Of a stretch of 64,000 nucleotides of DNA, positions 31,720-56,007 are shown one piece after another; within the stretch, counting starts at the first letter, position 1, and each line of letters begins with the position of its first letter. Origin of the DNA: a virus; the IMG/VR virus record IMGVR_UViG_3300008266_000014, positions 32,001 to 96,000 of that record; one strand, 5' to 3'. Both the position numbers and the translations under genes were made by a program. The notes below the pieces were generated by a model, which was not told the DNA's origin, made no database searches, and saw only the letters and a list, made by a program, of their open reading frames with translations.

Positions 31720-33033
31720 ATGATGTTAGCTGAAGAACTACAATCCAAATGGGATCCAATTCTGTCTCATCCAGATTTGGCTCCTATCAAGGATGCACAT
31801 CGTCGTGGTGTTACCGCTGTTGTTCTAGAGAACACAGAGAAAGCACTTCGCGAAGCCAATCAGTATGTCCCACAAACACTTACTGAAGCCCCTACTAACG
31901 TAACCGGTGCTGACATTGACACTTTCGACCCAGTTTTGATTAGCTTGGTTCGTCGTGCAATGCCTAACCTAATCGCTTATGATATCTGCGGTGTCCAGCC
32001 AATGACTGGTCCTACAGGTCTTATTTTCGCAATGCGTTCGAAGTACAGCAATGCTACAAACAGCGCTGTTGAAACATTCTACAATGAAGTTAATACTTCG
32101 TTCTCGACTCAAGTTTCTGGTGCCAACACACTAGGTCAGAAGAATGTTGGTGGATATCCAGGTAACACAACTACCGGTACTGCTAACCTTGCTGAAACTG
32201 GTATCTACAACTTTGGCTCCGGCATGGCTACTGCTAACGCAGAAAGCAACAATGCATTTGCTGAAATGGCTTTCTCGATCGAGAAAGTTACTGTCACAGC
32301 TAAGTCGCGTGCTCTAAAAGCTGAGTACTCGATGGAACTCGCACAAGACTTGAAAGCAATTCATGGTCTTGACGCTGAGACAGAATTGTCGAACATCCTA
32401 TCGGCTGAAATCCTTGCTGAAATCAACCGTGAAGTCGTTCGTACAATCAACGTAACAGCTACCCGTGGTGCTACTGAGAACACCACAACCACTGGACGTT
32501 TTGACCTCGACACCGACTCGAACGGTCGTTGGAGCGTTGAGAAGTTCAAGGGTCTAATGTTCCAAGTTGAGCGTGAAGCTAACCAAATTGCCAAAGCTAC
32601 TCGTAGAGGCAAAGGTAACATGATCATCTGCTCGTCTGATGTTGCTTCGGCACTCCAGATGGCTGGTGTTCTTGATTACGCTCCTGCTCTAAACAGCAAC
32701 AATCTAAACGTCGATGACACAGGCAATACTTTTGCTGGTGTTCTCAATGGACGTATCCGTGTCTACATCGATCCATATGCAACTGGTAACTACCTAACTG
32801 TTGGTTACAAAGGTTCGTCGGCATTCGATGCTGGTCTCTTCTACTGCCCATATGTTCCACTACAGATGGTCCGTGCTGTTGACCCAGACACCTTCCAGCC
32901 TAAGATTGGTTTCAAGACACGTTATGGTATGGTTGCTAACCCATTTGCAGAGGGTGCAACAGTTGGACTTGGCGCATTGACCAAGGACAGCAACGTCTAC
33001 TATCGTCGTGTTCTAGTTGACAATCTAATGTAA
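31720..33033 (+). CDS. gp23: Major capsid protein gp23
   Basis: DPVLISLVRR, GVQPMTGPTGLIFAMR, ELAQDLKAIHGLDAE, FQPKIGFKTRYG. Confidence 0.98.
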   Translation: MMLAEELQSKWDPILSHPDLAPIKDAHRRGVTAVVLENTEKALREANQYVPQTLTEAPTNVTGADIDTFDPVLISLVRRAMPNLIAYDICGVQPMTGPTGLIFAMRSKYSNATNSAVETFYNEVNTSFSTQVSGANTLGQKNVGGYPGNTTTGTANLAETGIYNFGSGMATANAESNNAFAEMAFSIEKVTVTAKSRALKAEYSMELAQDLKAIHGLDAETELSNILSAEILAEINREVVRTINVTATRGATENTTTTGRFDLDTDSNGRWSVEKFKGLMFQVEREANQIAKATRRGKGNMIICSSDVASALQMAGVLDYAPALNSNNLNVDDTGNTFAGVLNGRIRVYIDPYATGNYLTVGYKGSSAFDAGLFYCPYVPLQMVRAVDPDTFQPKIGFKTRYGMVANPFAEGATVGLGALTKDSNVYYRRVLVDNLM

Positions 33034-39399: not shown

Positions 39400-39917
39400 T
39401 GATATATGATCTTGTACCTCCTGACCATCCTCTATTGAGGACCAAACTTGAGAGGTTTAATTTTACTGATCCCCCCATCAATCCTCATGAGTTGGCTAAC
39501 AATCTTATTGAAACGATGGTGCACTATCAAGGGATCGGTCTCTCAGCTAATCAGTGTGGTCTTCCTTATCGAGTTTTTGTTTTGTGGTCTAACCCAACAA
39601 AAGTCATGTTCAATCCTACCGTGGCAGATGTATCAACCGAAGATATTTTGCTTGAAGAAGGATGCTTGACTTATCCCAATCTTTTTATTAAAATCAAGAG
39701 ACCTAAATTAGTCAGAGTCCGTTACATGGATTCTTTTGGTGAAGCACATACAGACAAATTTACTGGGATGTCCGCTCGTTGCGTTCTTCATGAGGTGGAT
39801 CATCTGAACGGTGTTAACTTCACTCTCAAAGCCAATAAGTTTCATTATGATCAAGCGATGAGGCAGAGGAGCAAGAGAATGAAATCATATAAGGTGCCTA
39901 CATATGAGCAAAATTAA
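39399..39917 (+). CDS. def: Peptide deformylase
   Basis: GIGLSANQCG, EGCLT, HEVDHLNG motifs. Confidence 0.92.
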   Translation: MIYDLVPPDHPLLRTKLERFNFTDPPINPHELANNLIETMVHYQGIGLSANQCGLPYRVFVLWSNPTKVMFNPTVADVSTEDILLEEGCLTYPNLFIKIKRPKLVRVRYMDSFGEAHTDKFTGMSARCVLHEVDHLNGVNFTLKANKFHYDQAMRQRSKRMKSYKVPTYEQN

Positions 39918-40755
39918 AGTAGCAGAATTATTTTATAGTCTTCAGGGTGAAGGAAAATACGTTGGGGTACCTAGTGTGTTTCTTCGCACTTTCGGTTGTA
40001 ACTTCACGTGTAGTGGATTTGGAATGCCATCAGGTCAACTTTCTACGGAACGCGAAGCAATTGTAAAGAACATTGACCAGTATAAATCGTATAATGATCT
40101 GCCTCTTGTTCATACAGGCTGTGATTCATATGCAAGTTGGGATCCAAGATTCAAGCACCTGTCTCCGCTGTTTACTACAGACGAGATTGTTGATAAGATT
40201 ATGACACTTCTTCCAGAACAGAAGTGGAACAATGAACATTTAATTATTACTGGTGGTGAGCCTTTGCTTGGGTGGCAACGGTCTTATGAGGATTTGTTGA
40301 ATCATGAAAAGATGGAAGGTCTTTCATCACTTACTTTTGAAACAAACGGAACACAGAAGCTAACAGAAGATTTTAAAAAGTATCTATACAAATATTCTAG
40401 GTTACACAAAGGAAGCACAGAGATTGTTTTCTCTGTCAGTGCTAAGTTAAGTCCGTCAGGTGAGAAGTGGGAGGAGGCAATTCTTCCGGATGTTGTAAAA
40501 GAATATGATTGGTATGGTGAAGTGTATTTGAAGTTCGTTGTCGATAAAGAGACAGATATATACGAAATCGATAGAGCAGTTGCTGCTTATCGTGATGTCG
40601 GTATTCGTGGTGATGTTTATTTAATGCCAGTTGGTGGTACTGACCAACTTTACTTTAACAACTACCGAGCAGTTGCAGAGATGGCAATGAAGCGTGGCTG
40701 GAGATACAGTCCAAGACTACAGGTAGATATATGGAGAAACGCATGGGGAACATGA
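39904..40755 (+). CDS. queE: 7-carboxy-7-deazaguanine synthase (radical SAM)
   Basis: ELFYSLQGEG, FLRTFGCNFTC...GCDS, ITGGEP, FETNGT, SPRLQ. Confidence 0.9.
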   Translation: MSKIKVAELFYSLQGEGKYVGVPSVFLRTFGCNFTCSGFGMPSGQLSTEREAIVKNIDQYKSYNDLPLVHTGCDSYASWDPRFKHLSPLFTTDEIVDKIMTLLPEQKWNNEHLIITGGEPLLGWQRSYEDLLNHEKMEGLSSLTFETNGTQKLTEDFKKYLYKYSRLHKGSTEIVFSVSAKLSPSGEKWEEAILPDVVKEYDWYGEVYLKFVVDKETDIYEIDRAVAAYRDVGIRGDVYLMPVGGTDQLYFNNYRAVAEMAMKRGWRYSPRLQVDIWRNAWGT

Positions 40756-40758
40756 TTT

Positions 40759-41199
40759 ATGGACATTACAACGGATGATTTCTTCAAAGCAGTGGCTTGT
40801 CTTCATCAGCAAATCAGAAACTCTGAGGATACGTTTGACAGCGTTGTTGGGATCTCTCGTGGGGGCCTTATTAGTGGCGTTATTCTCTCTCACCGTCTTG
40901 AGATTCCTTTTCGACCTATTGAATGGTCATTAAGAGATTCTCATAGAAAATATATTCCACCCGATATCATTGTTGATGCGTGGGAAGGTAAGAAGATACT
41001 TCTTGTTGATGATATTGTTGATAGTGGGGAAACAATAGTAACAATTAAGAATCGTTTTGGAGATTCTTCTAAAAATGTTAAAGTGGCCTGCCTTGTCTAC
41101 AACAAAGAACAACAGTTAGTTATACCAGATTTTTGGTATGAATCTATTGACAGGAATGAGGATAAGGATTGGGTCAATTTCTGGTGGGAATCTAAATAA
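40759..41199 (+). CDS. Type I phosphoribosyltransferase (purine/XGPRT-like)
   Basis: GISRGG, ILLVDDIVDSGET PRPP-binding motif, WVNFWWE C-terminus. Confidence 0.85.
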   Translation: MDITTDDFFKAVACLHQQIRNSEDTFDSVVGISRGGLISGVILSHRLEIPFRPIEWSLRDSHRKYIPPDIIVDAWEGKKILLVDDIVDSGETIVTIKNRFGDSSKNVKVACLVYNKEQQLVIPDFWYESIDRNEDKDWVNFWWESK

Positions 41200-41205
41200 A
41201 TTCTC

Positions 41206-41275
41206 ATAGCGGCCTTTCTGGACTTCATCCCGCTTTATAAATTCTGCAGGCCTATATCTCATATAGGAGAATTTA
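41206..41275 (+). promoter_or_regulatory. Candidate riboswitch-like leader of queD (preQ1-I-like)
   Basis: AGCGG/CCGCT stem with loop ending CATC, A/T-rich tail, GGCCT/AGGCC pairing, and CCTATAT/ATATAGG hairpin over the AGGAGA SD. Confidence 0.5.
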
Positions 41276-41788
41276 ATGTCTCAAACTATGTTTCCATCAA
41301 AAACATACAAATATGTTTCAACAAAAGAATACCATGATGCATTTCCTTGCGCTTATAGGCAATGGCGTGCAGATTCGCATTGTAATCTGATTCATGGTTA
41401 TTCCTTTTCAATGAAGTTTTATTTTGGTACAGATGATCTTGATGTTCGTAACTGGGCGGCTGATTATGGTGGTCTGAAAGAGCTCAAGGGTGTTCTCGAG
41501 AGTCAGTTTGATCATACCTTGCTTGTTGCGGAGGATGATCCTGAATTGGATTTGTACATGGAGATGCAGCGTAGAAACATTGCCAAGCTAACCATTCTTC
41601 CAAAGTTGGGGTGTGAAGGTCTAGCAGACCAACTTTACAAATACGTAAATGGTGTATATATTCCTGACTACTGGGGTCCTGGTGAAGCCGATCGCCTTTG
41701 GTGCTATCGTGTAGAAGTTCGTGAGACACAAAGCAACATGGCTTTCCGTGAAGGTCATCGTGAATGGAATGAGGACTTGTTTGCGTGA
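41276..41788 (+). CDS. queD: 6-carboxy-tetrahydropterin synthase (QueD/PTPS family)
   Basis: SHCNLIHGY (CxxxHG), DYGGLK, FDHTLL, VEVRET motifs; in a cluster with queE. Confidence 0.85.
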   Translation: MSQTMFPSKTYKYVSTKEYHDAFPCAYRQWRADSHCNLIHGYSFSMKFYFGTDDLDVRNWAADYGGLKELKGVLESQFDHTLLVAEDDPELDLYMEMQRRNIAKLTILPKLGCEGLADQLYKYVNGVYIPDYWGPGEADRLWCYRVEVRETQSNMAFREGHREWNEDLFA

Positions 41789-42054
41789 TAAAAAGATCCC
41801 AAGTATGGTTTTCTGGTGGTAGAGTCAGGAATACTCCTTTCGATACCTCTAAGAGACATATTAGAAAACAGTTTCCCTGGGTACCAGATGGCGTATATGA
41901 TCACTCTGGTTTTCAAATACGGTATGAAATTCAACAAGGTTTTATACTCACCTGTATATCAAAAATGTGGATTGACAACGGTGGGCCAGACGATGCAGAC
42001 GTGGCGTTGAGACTACCATGGGGAACATACTTAGATATTCCACCTAAACCCTAA
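41785..42054 (+). CDS. Hypothetical protein
   Basis: 89 aa, GTGA overlap with queD stop. Confidence 0.45.
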   Translation: MIKRSQVWFSGGRVRNTPFDTSKRHIRKQFPWVPDGVYDHSGFQIRYEIQQGFILTCISKMWIDNGGPDDADVALRLPWGTYLDIPPKP

Positions 42055-42081
42055 GATGTATTAAAGTAAAAAATAATTATC

Positions 42082-42669
42082 ATGAAAAGGGAAAACTGGT
42101 TCGCTACTCCCGTTTGGTATGATGATACTGATGTGCCAGATGCAGTAGTCGAGCAAATAGCTAGCAAGTGGATATCTTTGTCACGAGATGTGCAATCAGC
42201 AAGTGTATCTAATGTTGGTGGATGGCAAAGCCATAGTCTGACATATGATGAATGTGATTCTTTTGAGAGAGAGTTATTTCATCATGTAGACCTCGCTGCT
42301 GACTTTATACACGAAGACTATAAGATAAAGAATAAAATAGTTCTCGGCAATTGGTGGGTTAACATTAACGGGTATGGTAACTACAACAGGCTCCACATAC
42401 ACGGAGGAGTTTTGTCTGGAGTTTTTTATGTGAAAACTGCTAAAGCTGACTCAGGATCCTTAATTTTCCACAGACCTTCTTACATGTACGAGGTTGCATC
42501 CTTTACTACCACCGATTTAGATTCTACAGCTTTGGAAGTTAGTTATGAGCCTTTGGATAAGAGATTGATATTGTTTCCTGCGTGGATACCCCATAGCGTA
42601 AATGCTAATTTTTCTGACCAAAAGCGAGTATCTATTGGGTTCAACTACGTCGTGGCACAGGGGTTATAG
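42082..42669 (+). CDS. 2OG-Fe(II) oxygenase (TIGR02466-like)
   Basis: SNVGGWQS, WVNIN..HIH..LSGVFY, LFPAWIPHSV..N....RVSIGFN. Confidence 0.8.
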   Translation: MKRENWFATPVWYDDTDVPDAVVEQIASKWISLSRDVQSASVSNVGGWQSHSLTYDECDSFERELFHHVDLAADFIHEDYKIKNKIVLGNWWVNINGYGNYNRLHIHGGVLSGVFYVKTAKADSGSLIFHRPSYMYEVASFTTTDLDSTALEVSYEPLDKRLILFPAWIPHSVNANFSDQKRVSIGFNYVVAQGL

Positions 42670-51901: not shown

Positions 51902-52222
51902 ATGCTTCAGCAGACAAATAAGTTAATGAAAAGTAGCATCATATCAAAGCAGTTTAATTATGTTGAATTTGACCCTAACAACAAAAAACATAGAATAGCT
52001 TTCTTTCAGTTTAAAGTCTCTGGTAAGTGGCCAGATAATATGAGATTTAATCTTGATCCGTTGTATGGAAATGTTCCGTCAATGATTAATCAGAAACTTC
52101 TTGATTTTTATTTTGCAAGAGATAGAGCTATCCCTAAAGATCTCAAAGAGAAATATAGTGAGAAGAAACTAGTATACCCTATAAGTGACATGACTGAAAT
52201 GACAGGAGAAGAAATTGAGTGA
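51902..52222 (+). CDS. Hypothetical protein
   Basis: 106 aa; FDPNNKKHR, GAGG SD. Confidence 0.55.
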   Translation: MLQQTNKLMKSSIISKQFNYVEFDPNNKKHRIAFFQFKVSGKWPDNMRFNLDPLYGNVPSMINQKLLDFYFARDRAIPKDLKEKYSEKKLVYPISDMTEMTGEEIE

Positions 52223-52913
52223 CAATGATCCCAAAGTTGATGTTTCGAATCTAATTAAGCAGCGATTGAAAGCTGCGAATGCACAATACAAAGCATGTGA
52301 CAATATCTCTTCATACATTAACGAAGAAGAGATACCCCTTCTCATAGATGAGGTCAAGTATAAGTTTCAGCAGGTACTTGACTCTCTCATTATCGATACA
52401 GAAAACGATCCTAACTCCAAAGACACAGCAAAGCGTCTTGCAAAGATGTATGTGTATGAGTTGATGTCTGGTCGTTATGAACCAAAACCAGATGTCACTT
52501 CATTTCCTAACGAAGGTGAAAACAGATTCGAAGGAATGCTGGTTGTTCGAGCAGAGATTCGTTCTATGTGCTCGCATCACCACCAGCCAGTGAAGGGTGT
52601 TTGTTATATTGGTATTGTTCCTACTGGTCGAGTAATTGGATTGTCGAAGTATGTTCGTATTGCACAATGGTGTGCACGTCGTGGACAATTACAAGAAGAA
52701 TTAGTTAATCAAATTGCAGGGGAAATTATGAAAGCAACAGAGACAGAAAATGTTGCTGTGTATATTGAGGCCACACATGGATGTATGGATAACAGAGGAG
52801 TAATGGCACACTCATCAATGACTCAGACATCTGCTGTGCATGGATTGTTCCACAACAATAGTGTCAAGCAAGAATTCTTTGACAACATTAAATTACAGTC
52901 GATGAGATGTTGA
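52215..52913 (+). CDS. folE: GTP cyclohydrolase I
   Basis: DTAKRLAKMY, SMCSHH, GLSKYVR, QLQEEL, HGCMDNRGV. Confidence 0.93.
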   Translation: MSDNDPKVDVSNLIKQRLKAANAQYKACDNISSYINEEEIPLLIDEVKYKFQQVLDSLIIDTENDPNSKDTAKRLAKMYVYELMSGRYEPKPDVTSFPNEGENRFEGMLVVRAEIRSMCSHHHQPVKGVCYIGIVPTGRVIGLSKYVRIAQWCARRGQLQEELVNQIAGEIMKATETENVAVYIEATHGCMDNRGVMAHSSMTQTSAVHGLFHNNSVKQEFFDNIKLQSMRC

Positions 52914-53456: not shown

Positions 53457-53933
53457 ATGCAAAGACTGACAACCAAATGGACTGACACTCTCGAGGAAGC
53501 TTTTGGTCCTCAAGTAAAGAGAGCAAGAGATGCTGAAATCATGGTAATGGATGCATTTACTAAATGGGGGTATGAAGTAATAGATCATGAGTCAGATAGG
53601 GATTTACAGACTCAAGGGCTTGATTTTTCTATACGAAAGAATACGTGGAGAAACTTTTACTCAATCGATGTGAAGGCCAACCTCGACAGCTACGGTTCTT
53701 ATTACGTTGATCTAAAACCAGATGGGTGGTTGTTTAACCCTAAAAAGACAAGTGATAGAATCTGTCATGCCTGCGTTGAGACAGGGTGGTTCCTCTGGTA
53801 CGGTAGAGACGACATGAAGAACTATATTCATAAAATGAATTTTGATATTTCCGAAGAAACAGTATTCAAGATAACTCCAAAAATTAAACTTGATTTTGTG
53901 ACACGCCGGAATGCTAACAAGGAGAGAGAATGA
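53457..53933 (+). CDS. Putative PD-(D/E)XK nuclease
   Basis: AEIMV...QTQGLDF...SIDVKAN...GWL pattern. Confidence 0.5.
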   Translation: MQRLTTKWTDTLEEAFGPQVKRARDAEIMVMDAFTKWGYEVIDHESDRDLQTQGLDFSIRKNTWRNFYSIDVKANLDSYGSYYVDLKPDGWLFNPKKTSDRICHACVETGWFLWYGRDDMKNYIHKMNFDISEETVFKITPKIKLDFVTRRNANKERE

Positions 53934-54313
53934 TAAAAACGTCAATATGGGTCACATTCCAAAAAGAAGGAATACACAAATATCCCCAAGCAGCAACAGA
54001 CCCCAAGCTAGTCCACGTAGCATTCCTTGCAAATCCCCATCGTCACATCTTCCACTTCAGAGTCGAATTAGAAGTTTTTCATGATGACCGTGACATAGAA
54101 TTTATTTTACTGAAGCGTGAGTTGGAGGAGCTATATAATACAGGAACTCTCATGCTGAATAATATGTCATGTGAAATGATAGCAAGAGAGTTGCTGGCGT
54201 ACATATCAGAATACTACCCTGGTCGCGACTGCACCATCAGTGTTAGTGAAGATAATGAAAATGGATGCACACTTCATTATGTGAAGGAAAGTCCTAAATC
54301 TGATTGGAAATAA
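53930..54313 (+). CDS. dpdL: QueD-paralogue T-fold protein, DpdL-like (CDG decarboxylase candidate)
   Basis: EGIHKYP, LANPHRHIF (LxxxHRHxF in place of QueD CxxxHGH), DRDIEF, SCEMIA, VSEDNENG. The DpdL motif is recalled from literature, not verified here. Confidence 0.7.
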   Translation: MIKTSIWVTFQKEGIHKYPQAATDPKLVHVAFLANPHRHIFHFRVELEVFHDDRDIEFILLKRELEELYNTGTLMLNNMSCEMIARELLAYISEYYPGRDCTISVSEDNENGCTLHYVKESPKSDWK

Positions 54314-54316
54314 ATT

Positions 54317-55171
54317 ATGGCTACATTCTGTCACATCGCTCCCATCCCACACCTAGATATCATCAAAGGATCAAAGGCTCATCTTGCGCTTGCACATCTT
54401 ATCGAGCAAAGCGAAGAGTACACTTCCTTTTATGCCAAGGAAAGACAAAATGGCAGTATGGTAATTCTAGATAATTCTGCTTTTGAAATGTACAAGCAAG
54501 GGAAGCCAATGTATGAAATACCCAAGCTGATTGAGATGGCAGATCGACTGAAAGCAGATTATGTTGTAATGTCGGATTATCCAAACGACTACAGCAAAAC
54601 AACAATCAGTGCTGCAAAAGAAATTGCACCTGTTTTGAAGGACAAAGGATACGGTACTTTCTTTTGTCCACAGTCTAAGATTGGAGACAAGGGTGATTTG
54701 TTTAATTGTTTTGAATGGGCCGCTGATTCTGATCTCGTTGACTATATCGGTGTATCAATTCTTGCAATTCCAAATGCTTATGGTGTGGAAAAAAAGAACA
54801 AACTCCAGCGTTTTGTTAGCCGGTATATGTTTATGCAGGAGTTGAGAGATAGTGGTGTACTTGATCATGCAAAGTCCAAAGGTAAAAAGATCCACATGCT
54901 CGGTATGTTAGATGGTCCTGGTGAGATTAGATTGATGGAATCATTTAAAGACTATATCGATACGTGGGACAGTAGTGCTGCGATGTGGTTAGGTCTTCAT
55001 GCCGGTAAAACATTCGACAGTTCCCCAACAGGACTGATAAACGGTAAGTATGAGGAAGAAGTAGACTTTGATTATCAAAATGATAAAGGTAAGTTGAATG
55101 CAATTATCAACATGAGTATAATCAACAACTATATTCAAATGTACCTAACACCGGAGAGCGATGATGAGTAA
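54317..55171 (+). CDS. dpdA: TGT-fold deazaguanine transglycosylase-like protein (DpdA family)
   Basis: ILDNSAFE, KIHMLGM, DTWDSS motifs resemble TGT/DpdA; adjacent to dpdL-like gene with folE/queD/queE nearby. Confidence 0.6.
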   Translation: MATFCHIAPIPHLDIIKGSKAHLALAHLIEQSEEYTSFYAKERQNGSMVILDNSAFEMYKQGKPMYEIPKLIEMADRLKADYVVMSDYPNDYSKTTISAAKEIAPVLKDKGYGTFFCPQSKIGDKGDLFNCFEWAADSDLVDYIGVSILAIPNAYGVEKKNKLQRFVSRYMFMQELRDSGVLDHAKSKGKKIHMLGMLDGPGEIRLMESFKDYIDTWDSSAAMWLGLHAGKTFDSSPTGLINGKYEEEVDFDYQNDKGKLNAIINMSIINNYIQMYLTPESDDE

Positions 55172-55541
55172 TTACAGATACAATGAAGATGTGTATCTTG
55201 GTAACATAATGAAATACCTTAAAGGAACATATGGAGAACATTATGTTGCTAAAGATATCCAGGTAATTGATATATGGGAGTCTCTAGACTCTCTTGAGTC
55301 TACAGCAAGAGACACAGCTATTAAATATCTATGTCGGTATGGAAAAAAGGATGGCAAGAATCGAAAAGATTTAATGAAGGCGATTCATTACATCATTCTT
55401 ATGATGTACGCAAGTGATAGGCAGGATCAACAAGAAAAGATCGATGCTTCCAAATACGAGGCTGTAAAAAACAATCAGCCAGAAATTCAAGATGCTTATG
55501 ATAAGGTGAATAATTATGATACATATCTCAGGACATCATAG
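55161..55541 (+). CDS. DUF3310 / T7 gp1.7-like protein
   Basis: TYGEHY, AIKYLCRYGKKDG...DLMKAIHY. Confidence 0.65.
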   Translation: MMSNYRYNEDVYLGNIMKYLKGTYGEHYVAKDIQVIDIWESLDSLESTARDTAIKYLCRYGKKDGKNRKDLMKAIHYIILMMYASDRQDQQEKIDASKYEAVKNNQPEIQDAYDKVNNYDTYLRTS

Positions 55542-56007
55542 TAAATCAACTCTTACAAATGTAAGAGAAAATGATAATCAACCCAATGCTGTTGACCTTC
55601 GGTTAGATAAAGTTTTCGTCATTGCTAAAAACAATTTTGTGATTAGTGAAGATGAAAAACAGCACAGAGGTACTATCGAGTGGATACCAGATGAGGATGG
55701 GTGGTTTACCCTTTCTGAAGGCACGTACGAAGTTGTAATGGAAAACATTATTCATGTTGGTCCAGATGAAGCAGGATGGGTAATTACAAGATCCACACTA
55801 AACCGTAATGGGGTTTTTATAACTTCTGGTCTGTATGATTCTGGATATCATGGTGTTATGGCAGGTGCTCTTCATGTAAGGGGAGGACCTTTAAAGATTA
55901 AAAGAGGAACACGAGTTGCTCAGTTCCTTCTTTTCAAAGCCGAGGCTCTCTCAGAATATAATGGATCTTATGGTTTGAAAAGTGAACACGATAAAAAATA
56001 CGTATAA
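55516..56007 (+). CDS. dUTPase/dCTP-deaminase-fold protein
   Basis: QPNAVDLRL, RSTLNRNG, YDSGYHG, RVAQF, YNGSY. Confidence 0.8.
   Translation: MIHISGHHSKSTLTNVRENDNQPNAVDLRLDKVFVIAKNNFVISEDEKQHRGTIEWIPDEDGWFTLSEGTYEVVMENIIHVGPDEAGWVITRSTLNRNGVFITSGLYDSGYHGVMAGALHVRGGPLKIKRGTRVAQFLLFKAEALSEYNGSYGLKSEHDKKYV

Follow-up and report, generated by a model that had tools for sequence, protein, structure and literature searches.

The queD leader of a T4-like phage

We analysed the leader of a queD-like gene in a 64,000-nucleotide (nt) stretch of viral DNA, namely positions 32,001 to 96,000 of IMG/VR record IMGVR_UViG_3300008266_000014 (hereafter the window, whose numbering is used unless the genome is named). 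The source record is a T4-like phage of 155.5 kb that carries gp46/gp47-like genes, a peptide deformylase gene and nine tRNAs. The gap between a purine-type phosphoribosyltransferase (PRTase) gene, with its stop codon at 41197-99, and the ATG of queD at 41276 spans 76 nt (41200-41275). A preliminary description of this locus, made from the sequence alone, had noted a stem AGCGG/CCGCT with a loop ending in CATC, an A/T-rich tail 3' of it (TTATAAATT, 41235-43), a hairpin reaching into the Shine-Dalgarno (SD) sequence and a late-promoter-like CTAAATA, and had read the whole as a variant of the class I prequeuosine 1 (preQ1-I) riboswitch gating queD translation. All of these elements were found in place. 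As judged by comparison of related sequences, the leader is a real, strongly supported, phage-restricted structured RNA. It consists of a pseudoknot with two helices (P1 and P2) and three loops (L1 to L3), followed by a platform hairpin (P3) over the SD (Table 1); in this anatomy, L3 of the window's RNA is written as UUAUAAAUUCUGC. P3 appears in the minimum free energy structure of the leader as well as in that of the isolated platform, the latter folding at −5.6 kcal/mol.

Table 1. Features of the queD leader and of associated genes, in window coordinates.
Feature	Position	Strand	Basis or remark
Late-promoter-like box CTAAATA	41192..41198	+	Sequence; ends 9 nt 5' of P1
P1 5' strand AGCGG	41208..41212	+	Partner 41230-34
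L1 CCTTTCT	41213..41219	+	Family pattern N-C-U, then variable part; 3-9 nt in total
P2 5' strand GGACT (pseudoknot helix)	41220..41224	+	Partner 41248-52; family-wide covariation
L2 TCATC	41225..41229	+	U, C, A and last C invariant; CATC = 41226-29
P1 3' strand CCGCT	41230..41234	+	Partner 41208-12
L3 TTATAAATTCTGC	41235..41247	+	A-rich start, then invariant UCUG plus C
P2 3' strand AGGCC	41248..41252	+	Last two C also open P3; shared switching strand
P3 hairpin CCTATAT/ATATAGG, loop CTC	41251..41267	+	Arms 41251-57 and 41261-67; covers AGG of SD
SD sequence AGGAGA	41265..41270	+	Sequence; 5 nt 5' of ATG
queD-like gene, PTPS/QueD family, 170 amino acids	41276..41788	+	Pfam PTPS 2e-13; PHROG 2389 QueD-like 9e-35
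Purine-type PRTase gene	40759..41199	+	Pfam Pribosyltran; NCBIfam xanthine/HGPRT-like; context, outside the element
QueE-like radical SAM gene	39904..40755	+	PHROG 2076 QueE-like 4.7e-57; NCBIfam QueE models below cut-offs
GTP cyclohydrolase I (FolE) gene	52215..52913	+	PF01227 142 bits, genome 84365-84889 = window 52365-52889

An IMG/VR search anchored on QueD recovered at least 80 loci with 84-93% amino-acid identity, and the leaders of these loci are strikingly conserved; 50 distinct ones make up our first alignment (A1). Two RNA-only pattern scans, the second of them with no complementarity requirement, widened the family and added the P1 variants AGAGG/CCUCU, AGUGG/CCACU and ACCGG/CCGGU. 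At least 238 distinct copies were parsed from IMG/VR phage contigs, and a second alignment (A2) holds 142 distinct sequences; counts of the element in these contigs are among the matches listed and hence lower bounds. A covariance model built for the element (R1), with which the window, the genome and the loci were scanned, detects a single copy in the 155.5-kb genome, the one in the window, which scores 66.8 bits (typical members reach 75-94 bits). The family is large, its aptamer is compact at about 45 nt, and natural compensatory variants abound in it, which makes it directly testable by experiment.

The element is closely tied to queD. It was found in 63 of the 80 QueD-anchored loci listed, always just upstream of queD. 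The first pattern scan placed it in all 80 loci listed, with queD as the next gene in 77, and the second in 75 of 80 loci listed, these having other P1 sequences. The leaders are nearly unchanged even before QueDs that are just 36-60% identical to that of the window. Among the downstream open reading frames (ORFs) of at least 100 amino acids, 226 of 231 fall into a single BLAST component, the QueD family, and Pfam PTPS matches 38 of 42 representatives of the downstream ORFs (clustered at 80% identity). A PRTase gene lies upstream in just 16 of 217 family members; the upstream gene varies, and it is with queD that the element travels. At the loci without the element (L006, L035, L050, L061 and 13 more of L001-L080), little or no sequence separates queD from the upstream gene, which is sometimes the PRTase gene. 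At L164, L172, L121, L132 and L044 an extra ORF separates the element from queD; these ORFs include a 113-amino-acid cupin, a methyltransferase, a 282-amino-acid ORF and others with no Pfam match, and look like insertions into the junction between leader and gene. Further, upstream of the intact L084:1000-1076, at a distance of about 1 kb, there is a degenerate copy (L084:6-84; 26.4 bits, with a broken P1 and no SD hairpin) that looks like a decayed duplicate.

Beyond the viral contigs, a scan of bacteria and archaea with one genome per species (185,579 genomes) gave two matches. The first is a full copy scoring 89.5 bits (L204) on NZ_JBBAKG010000001.1, a contig of 183 kb that has a gene for the T4 capsid protein Gp23 and sits in a metagenome-assembled genome (MAG) of Haliscomenobacter sp.; this T4-like phage contig, binned with a Bacteroidota MAG, is either a hint to the host or a binning artefact. 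The second is partial, with neither L2 nor a downstream ORF, and was read as a chance match. The element is restricted to phages. Among cultured phages, blastn and tblastn found only distant relatives of QueD, and the leader is not shared with them.

Covarying helices and invariant loops

P1 (AGNGG/CCNCU) is paired in 100% of the A1 cells and covaries at its second (GC/CG) and third (CG/AU/UA) pairs. It is perfect in 77 of 82 matches of the pattern that did not enforce complementarity, and RNAalifold predicts both P1 and the SD hairpin independently. P2 joins the five loop nt immediately 5' of L2 to the five nt immediately 3' of L3, which yields an H-type pseudoknot. On A2, 84.1% of the P2 cells are paired as against 52.4 ± 1.5% in shuffles, with slid controls at 20-49%. 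In a fixed register over the 238 copies, 4.23 of 5 pairs form, compared to 2.64 ± 0.08 with the 3' strands shuffled. Two-sided changes are seen in A2 at all five pairs, as many as six standard pair types occur at a single position, and the variants include GGCG/CGCC, GGUG/CACC, GGCAU/AUGCC, GACUU/AAGUC, GACAA/UUGUC and GACGC/GUGUC, the helix having 4-5 base pairs (bp) across the family. The preliminary description had proposed a different 5' strand, with GGCCT (41211-15) pairing to AGGCC (41248-52). The literal complementarity of these two strands stands, but the comparison does not support it: their cells are paired at 76.1% as against 75.3% in shuffles, 45 of 49 sequences fail to form the fourth pair, and the conserved partner of the 3' strand is instead GGACT (41220-24). 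The wider claim of a conserved, pseudoknotted leader RNA tied to queD is borne out by the covariation across the family and by the linkage to queD. Aligning related queD leaders, a check that had been proposed along with it, revealed both conservation and covariation in P1, P2 and the SD hairpin.

Thirteen unpaired positions are invariant over the 142 distinct sequences of A2. L2 follows the pattern U-C-A-N-C, with alignment columns T6, C7, A8 and C10 invariant, and the nucleotide before its last C is mostly U, otherwise C or A. L3 follows W-U-A-H-A-W-A-Y-U-C-U-G-C, in which A3, A7 and UCUG are invariant (columns A18, A22, T24, C25, T26 and G27) and conservation reaches 90% or more in columns C28, T17 and A20. 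In L1 the first nucleotide varies (A in 79 copies, U in 95 and C in 64), and the next two are C (237 of 238) and U (236 of 238). Position 4 of L3 and the middle P1 pair (41238 and 41210/41232 in the window) share 0.97 bit of mutual information, this position being C or U with a C-G pair and A with an A-U or U-A pair. Such a coupling could reflect either a minor-groove base triple or shared ancestry and clade history.

Signals for transcription also recur in the family. The TAAATA core known from T4-type late boxes is present within 45 nt upstream of P1 in 138 of 234 copies, as against a rate of 2.3% in random windows, and in most cases its end lies 5-11 nt 5' of P1; the late-promoter-like box that had been noted at this one locus is a feature of the family. 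As the end of CTAAATA lies 9 nt 5' of P1, the aptamer would come first in a late transcript, and the box presumably has promoter activity. Another signal, a sigma-70-like TTTACA-N17-TATAAT matching at 10 or more of 12 positions, is embedded in 86 of 238 copies, where it extends from L3 to the P3 loop (e.g., L005:2887-2961). It is confined to the AGCGG clade and is found neither in the window nor in the AGAGG and AGUGG clades.

These signals raise the question of whether the leader is conserved as DNA, comprising a terminator of the upstream gene and then a queD promoter, with no function as RNA. Such an arrangement would fit the TTT that follows CCGCT, the sigma-70-like match in many relatives, and the octamer TATAAATT inside L3 (41237-44), which agrees with the T4 late box at 7 of 8 positions. 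We nevertheless consider it highly improbable. The stem has 5 bp with a loop of 13-19 nt and no U tract, and a terminator scan does not report it, whereby the terminator reading of P1 was rejected. About half of the copies reach a 7/8 late-box match because L3 is A/U-rich, and a late box cannot explain UCUGC; indeed, neither UCUGC nor UCAYC matches any promoter element. The sigma-70-like promoter was likewise rejected as the cause of the family's conservation, given its restriction to a single clade and its absence from the window. Moreover, conservation as DNA provides no rationale for a long-range, covarying pairing between a loop and a 'spacer', and the wobble-pair bias is strand-specific: G.U cells exceed A.C cells in P2 by about 3 to 1 over the 238 copies, and the structure is thereby assigned to the queD strand.

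The expression platform and its predicted switch

The type of expression platform differs by clade. In the window's clade, a hairpin CCUAUG.../...CAUAGG (CCUAUAU/AUAUAGG in the window) covers the AGG of the SD, and in A1 it is 96-100% paired and covarying. Most members of the AGAGG and AGUGG clades are without this hairpin; there, the P2 3' strand and AUC together form a complement of the start region (AAGUCAUC with GAUGACUU is one case, AUGCCAUU with AAUGGCA another). When the platform is folded alone, at least 2 nt of the P2 3' strand are paired in 225 of 238 copies, with the SD as the partner in 103 and the start-codon region in 122. The complementarity to the ribosome-binding site (RBS) is sequence-specific, at −6.68 kcal/mol as against −5.57 ± 0.09 kcal/mol with the strands permuted among members, and position −1 covaries with its partner (CAUC with GAUG, CAUU with AAUG). 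The platform loses 4.1 kcal/mol on average once the P2 3' strand is withheld. The competition that had been predicted from C41251-52 being shared by the pseudoknot strand and the SD hairpin holds up. Since a single strand chooses between aptamer and RBS in every platform type, formation of the pseudoknot should free the RBS. Further, something must set the balance between the two states, because a constant pseudoknot would leave the anti-RBS complementarity with no reason for conservation.

A conserved aptamer combined with varied platforms is the usual signature of a riboswitch. The generic layout is found here as well: the aptamer with its invariant loops stays constant over the AGCGG, AGAGG, AGUGG and ACCGG clades as the platforms vary. 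As in translational ON riboswitches such as the add adenine riboswitch, one strand is shared by the aptamer and the helix that sequesters the RBS, and folding of the aptamer would release the SD or the start codon; unlike the three-way junction of add, the element is a pseudoknot and resides in a phage. In the mechanism that we propose, the leader RNA (41208-41270) combines an H-type pseudoknot, as the aptamer, with an RBS hairpin. With the effector absent, P1 and P3 would form, and C41251-52 would help to bury the AGG of the SD. The effector would stabilise the P1-P2 stack and draw strand 41248-52 into P2, which would reduce P3 to five A-U pairs, free the SD and allow QueD to be made. We infer that the direction of the switch is ON, i.e., activation of translation and not repression. 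Of the gating of queD translation envisaged in the preliminary description, the RBS-linked switch layout is retained, while the wiring implies activation where a preQ1-type switch would repress.

On this comparative evidence, we regard the leader as a candidate for a new phage-specific riboswitch class with a preQ1-I-like fold that would act as an ON switch on queD translation, and give this reading a probability of about 0.6. Several observations count against it. The window's leader folds no better than shuffled sequences (minimum free energy −15.9 kcal/mol versus −13.3 ± 2.7, z = −1.0), and hence the case for the element rests on comparison. P2 of the window, which in the family register reads G-C, G-C, A.G, C-G and U-A, has in its central A.G a mismatch that is rare in the family at this position, and its duplex is worth only −0.7 kcal/mol; as all invariant positions are kept, we take this copy to be an intact member with a weaker P2. 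The predicted RBS accessibility rises family-wide only from 0.51 to 0.58 when the P2 3' strand is withheld in RNAfold, which is a crude model, and in the window the same operation yields a hairpin of −5.5 kcal/mol that reaches into the first codons and again covers the SD. Given this modest shift, the ON logic rests mainly on the comparative argument. In addition, 17 of the 80 related queD loci listed are without the element, biosynthetic genes are not usually controlled by riboswitches that activate, conservation in the AGCGG clade could in part serve transcription from the embedded promoter, and another effector or a protein could use the same RNA.

The last two points bear on an alternative in which the leader is a ligand-free translational operator, set by temperature, Mg2+, the choice of promoter or a protein, which might for instance be QueD itself or an RNA-binding regulator of the phage. 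T4-like phages do use RBS-occluding hairpins and protein operators, and in the T4 genes e and soc an RBS hairpin is gated by promoter choice. The element resembles these hairpins in that an RBS is covered in the long transcripts of a T4-like phage, and in that one clade has an internal promoter which omits the occluding arm: transcripts from the embedded promoter of the AGCGG clade would start inside P3 and carry no anti-SD arm. The late-type box upstream of P1 is also compatible with an operator, and the mutually exclusive pairings stand without pointing to any particular effector. Unlike the e and soc hairpins, however, the occluding strand also takes part in a conserved pseudoknot with invariant loops, and transcripts from the upstream late-type box would contain the element in full. 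The 13 invariant unpaired nt at the P1/P2 junction, arranged in the layout of the preQ1-I pocket, suit a pocket for a small ligand better than a protein site; the embedded promoter is missing from the window and two clades; and the element is bound to one metabolic enzyme, with QueDs down to 36% identity. An operator of this kind therefore appears unlikely to us, if by no means far-fetched.

Relation to preQ1-I riboswitches and the candidate ligand

The search with Rfam preQ1 models that had been suggested as a check gave no match at the leader. With Rfam 15 there was none at the gathering score or at E up to 10, for segments of 301 nt and 56 nt, and RF00522, whose gathering score is 39 bits, had none at the leader in searches of the window or of the whole genome. 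Eight other family members are likewise devoid of any Rfam match at E up to 5. A match to snoRNA sR38 on the opposite strand (6.8 bits) was dismissed as noise. We found no description of the element in Rfam 15 or in the literature searched. The best RF00522 match in the genome, at 19.9 bits against the cut-off of 39, lies outside the window on the minus strand (genome 151043-151083; L326:1501-1541); the sequence there is rich in A and precedes a short ORF, and base composition probably accounts for the match.

The likeness to preQ1-I is nonetheless considerable. Both are small H-type pseudoknots with a 5-bp P1 closed by a G-C pair, and the element's loop ends in ..CAUC directly 5' of the CC of the P1 3' strand. 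In preQ1-I, the specificity cytosine stands directly 5' of the P1 3' strand above a G-C floor pair, and it follows a U in type I or an A in types II and III (PMC11625349), and a type I sequence for comparison is available from Carnobacterium antarcticum (PMC10018353). The element has an invariant cytosine in this place (C10, 142 sequences) and a G-C floor pair in 50 of 50. Its L3 is A-rich at the start and then has a conserved C, as in preQ1-I. The L3 adenines of preQ1-I dock in the minor groove of P1 and touch the ligand; in the element, A is invariant at L3 positions 3 and 7, but the UCUGC that follows is without a preQ1-I counterpart. It also resides in the leader of a Que-pathway gene and is predicted to act on translation through the RBS. 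The differences lie in the remaining loops and in the wiring. Where preQ1-I opens L1 with the uridines U6/U7, which recognise an edge of the ligand, the element has N-C-U plus a variable extension; its loop between the P1 strands measures 13-19 nt, compared to about 10-12; its P2 is a regular, covarying helix of 4-5 bp; and its L3, at 13 nt, has an extra conserved UCUGC. The 3' strand of P2 lies in or abuts the SD in preQ1-I, giving an OFF switch, whereas that of the element is anti-SD (103 copies) or anti-AUG (122 copies), giving a predicted ON switch. Finally, the element occurs on phage contigs only, and the phage shows no preQ0/preQ1 branch, with no QueC match. The element is a preQ1-I-type pseudoknot in its working, yet not a member of the preQ1-I family.

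Thus, the preQ1-I variant originally proposed survives as a layout (the 5-bp P1, the G-C closing pair, CAUC before CC and the A-rich L3) and falls on the RF00522 match and the L1 uridine. One might still take the element for a divergent but ordinary class I preQ1 riboswitch, with preQ1 or preQ0 as its ligand and feedback repression of queD translation as its effect. The shared topology, the G-C floor, the A-rich L3 and an invariant C that mostly follows U, as in type I, speak for this (PMC11625349; PMC10018353), as does the position before a Que-pathway gene. The silence of RF00522, both here and in the eight other members, speaks against it, and so does L1, with its variable first nucleotide and an invariant C in second place: a U7C exchange in the E. 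coli preQ1-I aptamer lowers the affinity for preQ1 35,000-fold (PMC10622847). The extra UCUGC of L3 and the regular P2 helix do not fit either, and with a P2 3' strand that is anti-RBS and not SD, binding should activate. Nor does the gene content favour it: FolE, QueD and QueE are encoded in the genome without a Pfam match to QueC or TGT, and two complete relatives are without QueC. A divergent preQ1 riboswitch is accordingly improbable in our estimation.

We return to the preferred reading, a new activating class, and to what it might sense. QueD catalyses the first committed step from 7,8-dihydroneopterin triphosphate (H2NTP) towards 7-carboxy-7-deazaguanine (CDG). The genome encodes FolE, QueD-like and QueE-like proteins and the purine-type PRTase. 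Among five large relatives, a QueC match is absent from the two complete genomes, and two others have weak N-terminal PP-loop matches. The phage pathway seems to stop at CDG or to branch from it, and phage-made preQ1 is hence an unlikely effector. The effector is probably a small molecule; the invariant cytosine would suggest a ligand with a guanine-like face, which is common to 7-deazapurines and pterins. Our best guess is a heterocycle of the guanine-like, 7-deazapurine or pterin kind, recognised through the invariant cytosine of L2. In its more specific form, the proposal is that a phage-only class senses a ligand other than preQ1 (CDG, 7-deazaguanine, H2NTP, 6-carboxy-tetrahydropterin (CPH4) or a guanine nucleotide) and turns on QueD of a QueC-less 7-deazaguanine pathway during infection, a version to which we lean only tentatively, at slightly less than even odds.

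Phages use 7-deazaguanine pathways for DNA modification, and riboswitch classes native to phages, as opposed to host-derived ones, are to our knowledge almost unknown. If the proposal is right, the phage would control entry into the 7-deazaguanine pathway through a metabolite sensor of its own, thereby metering hypermodification. The well-studied preQ1-I fold would gain a relative that activates, and the pathway's limiting metabolite would be indicated as well.

The neighbourhood offers two further observations. Downstream of queD (window 41785-42669), an 89-amino-acid ORF that matches no family overlaps the stop codon of queD and is followed by a 2OG-Fe(II) oxygenase of the TIGR02466 family; both may be co-expressed with queD and hence be under the same control. 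After folE (window 53457-56007) lies an operon of small genes that includes a PHROG 17812 protein, a nucleotide-kinase-like protein, a protein of the dCTP-deaminase/dUTPase fold, and a 284-amino-acid protein with only a weak match to PHROG 20335, in which Pfam TGT was not detected. This operon may supply the rest of the deazaguanine route.

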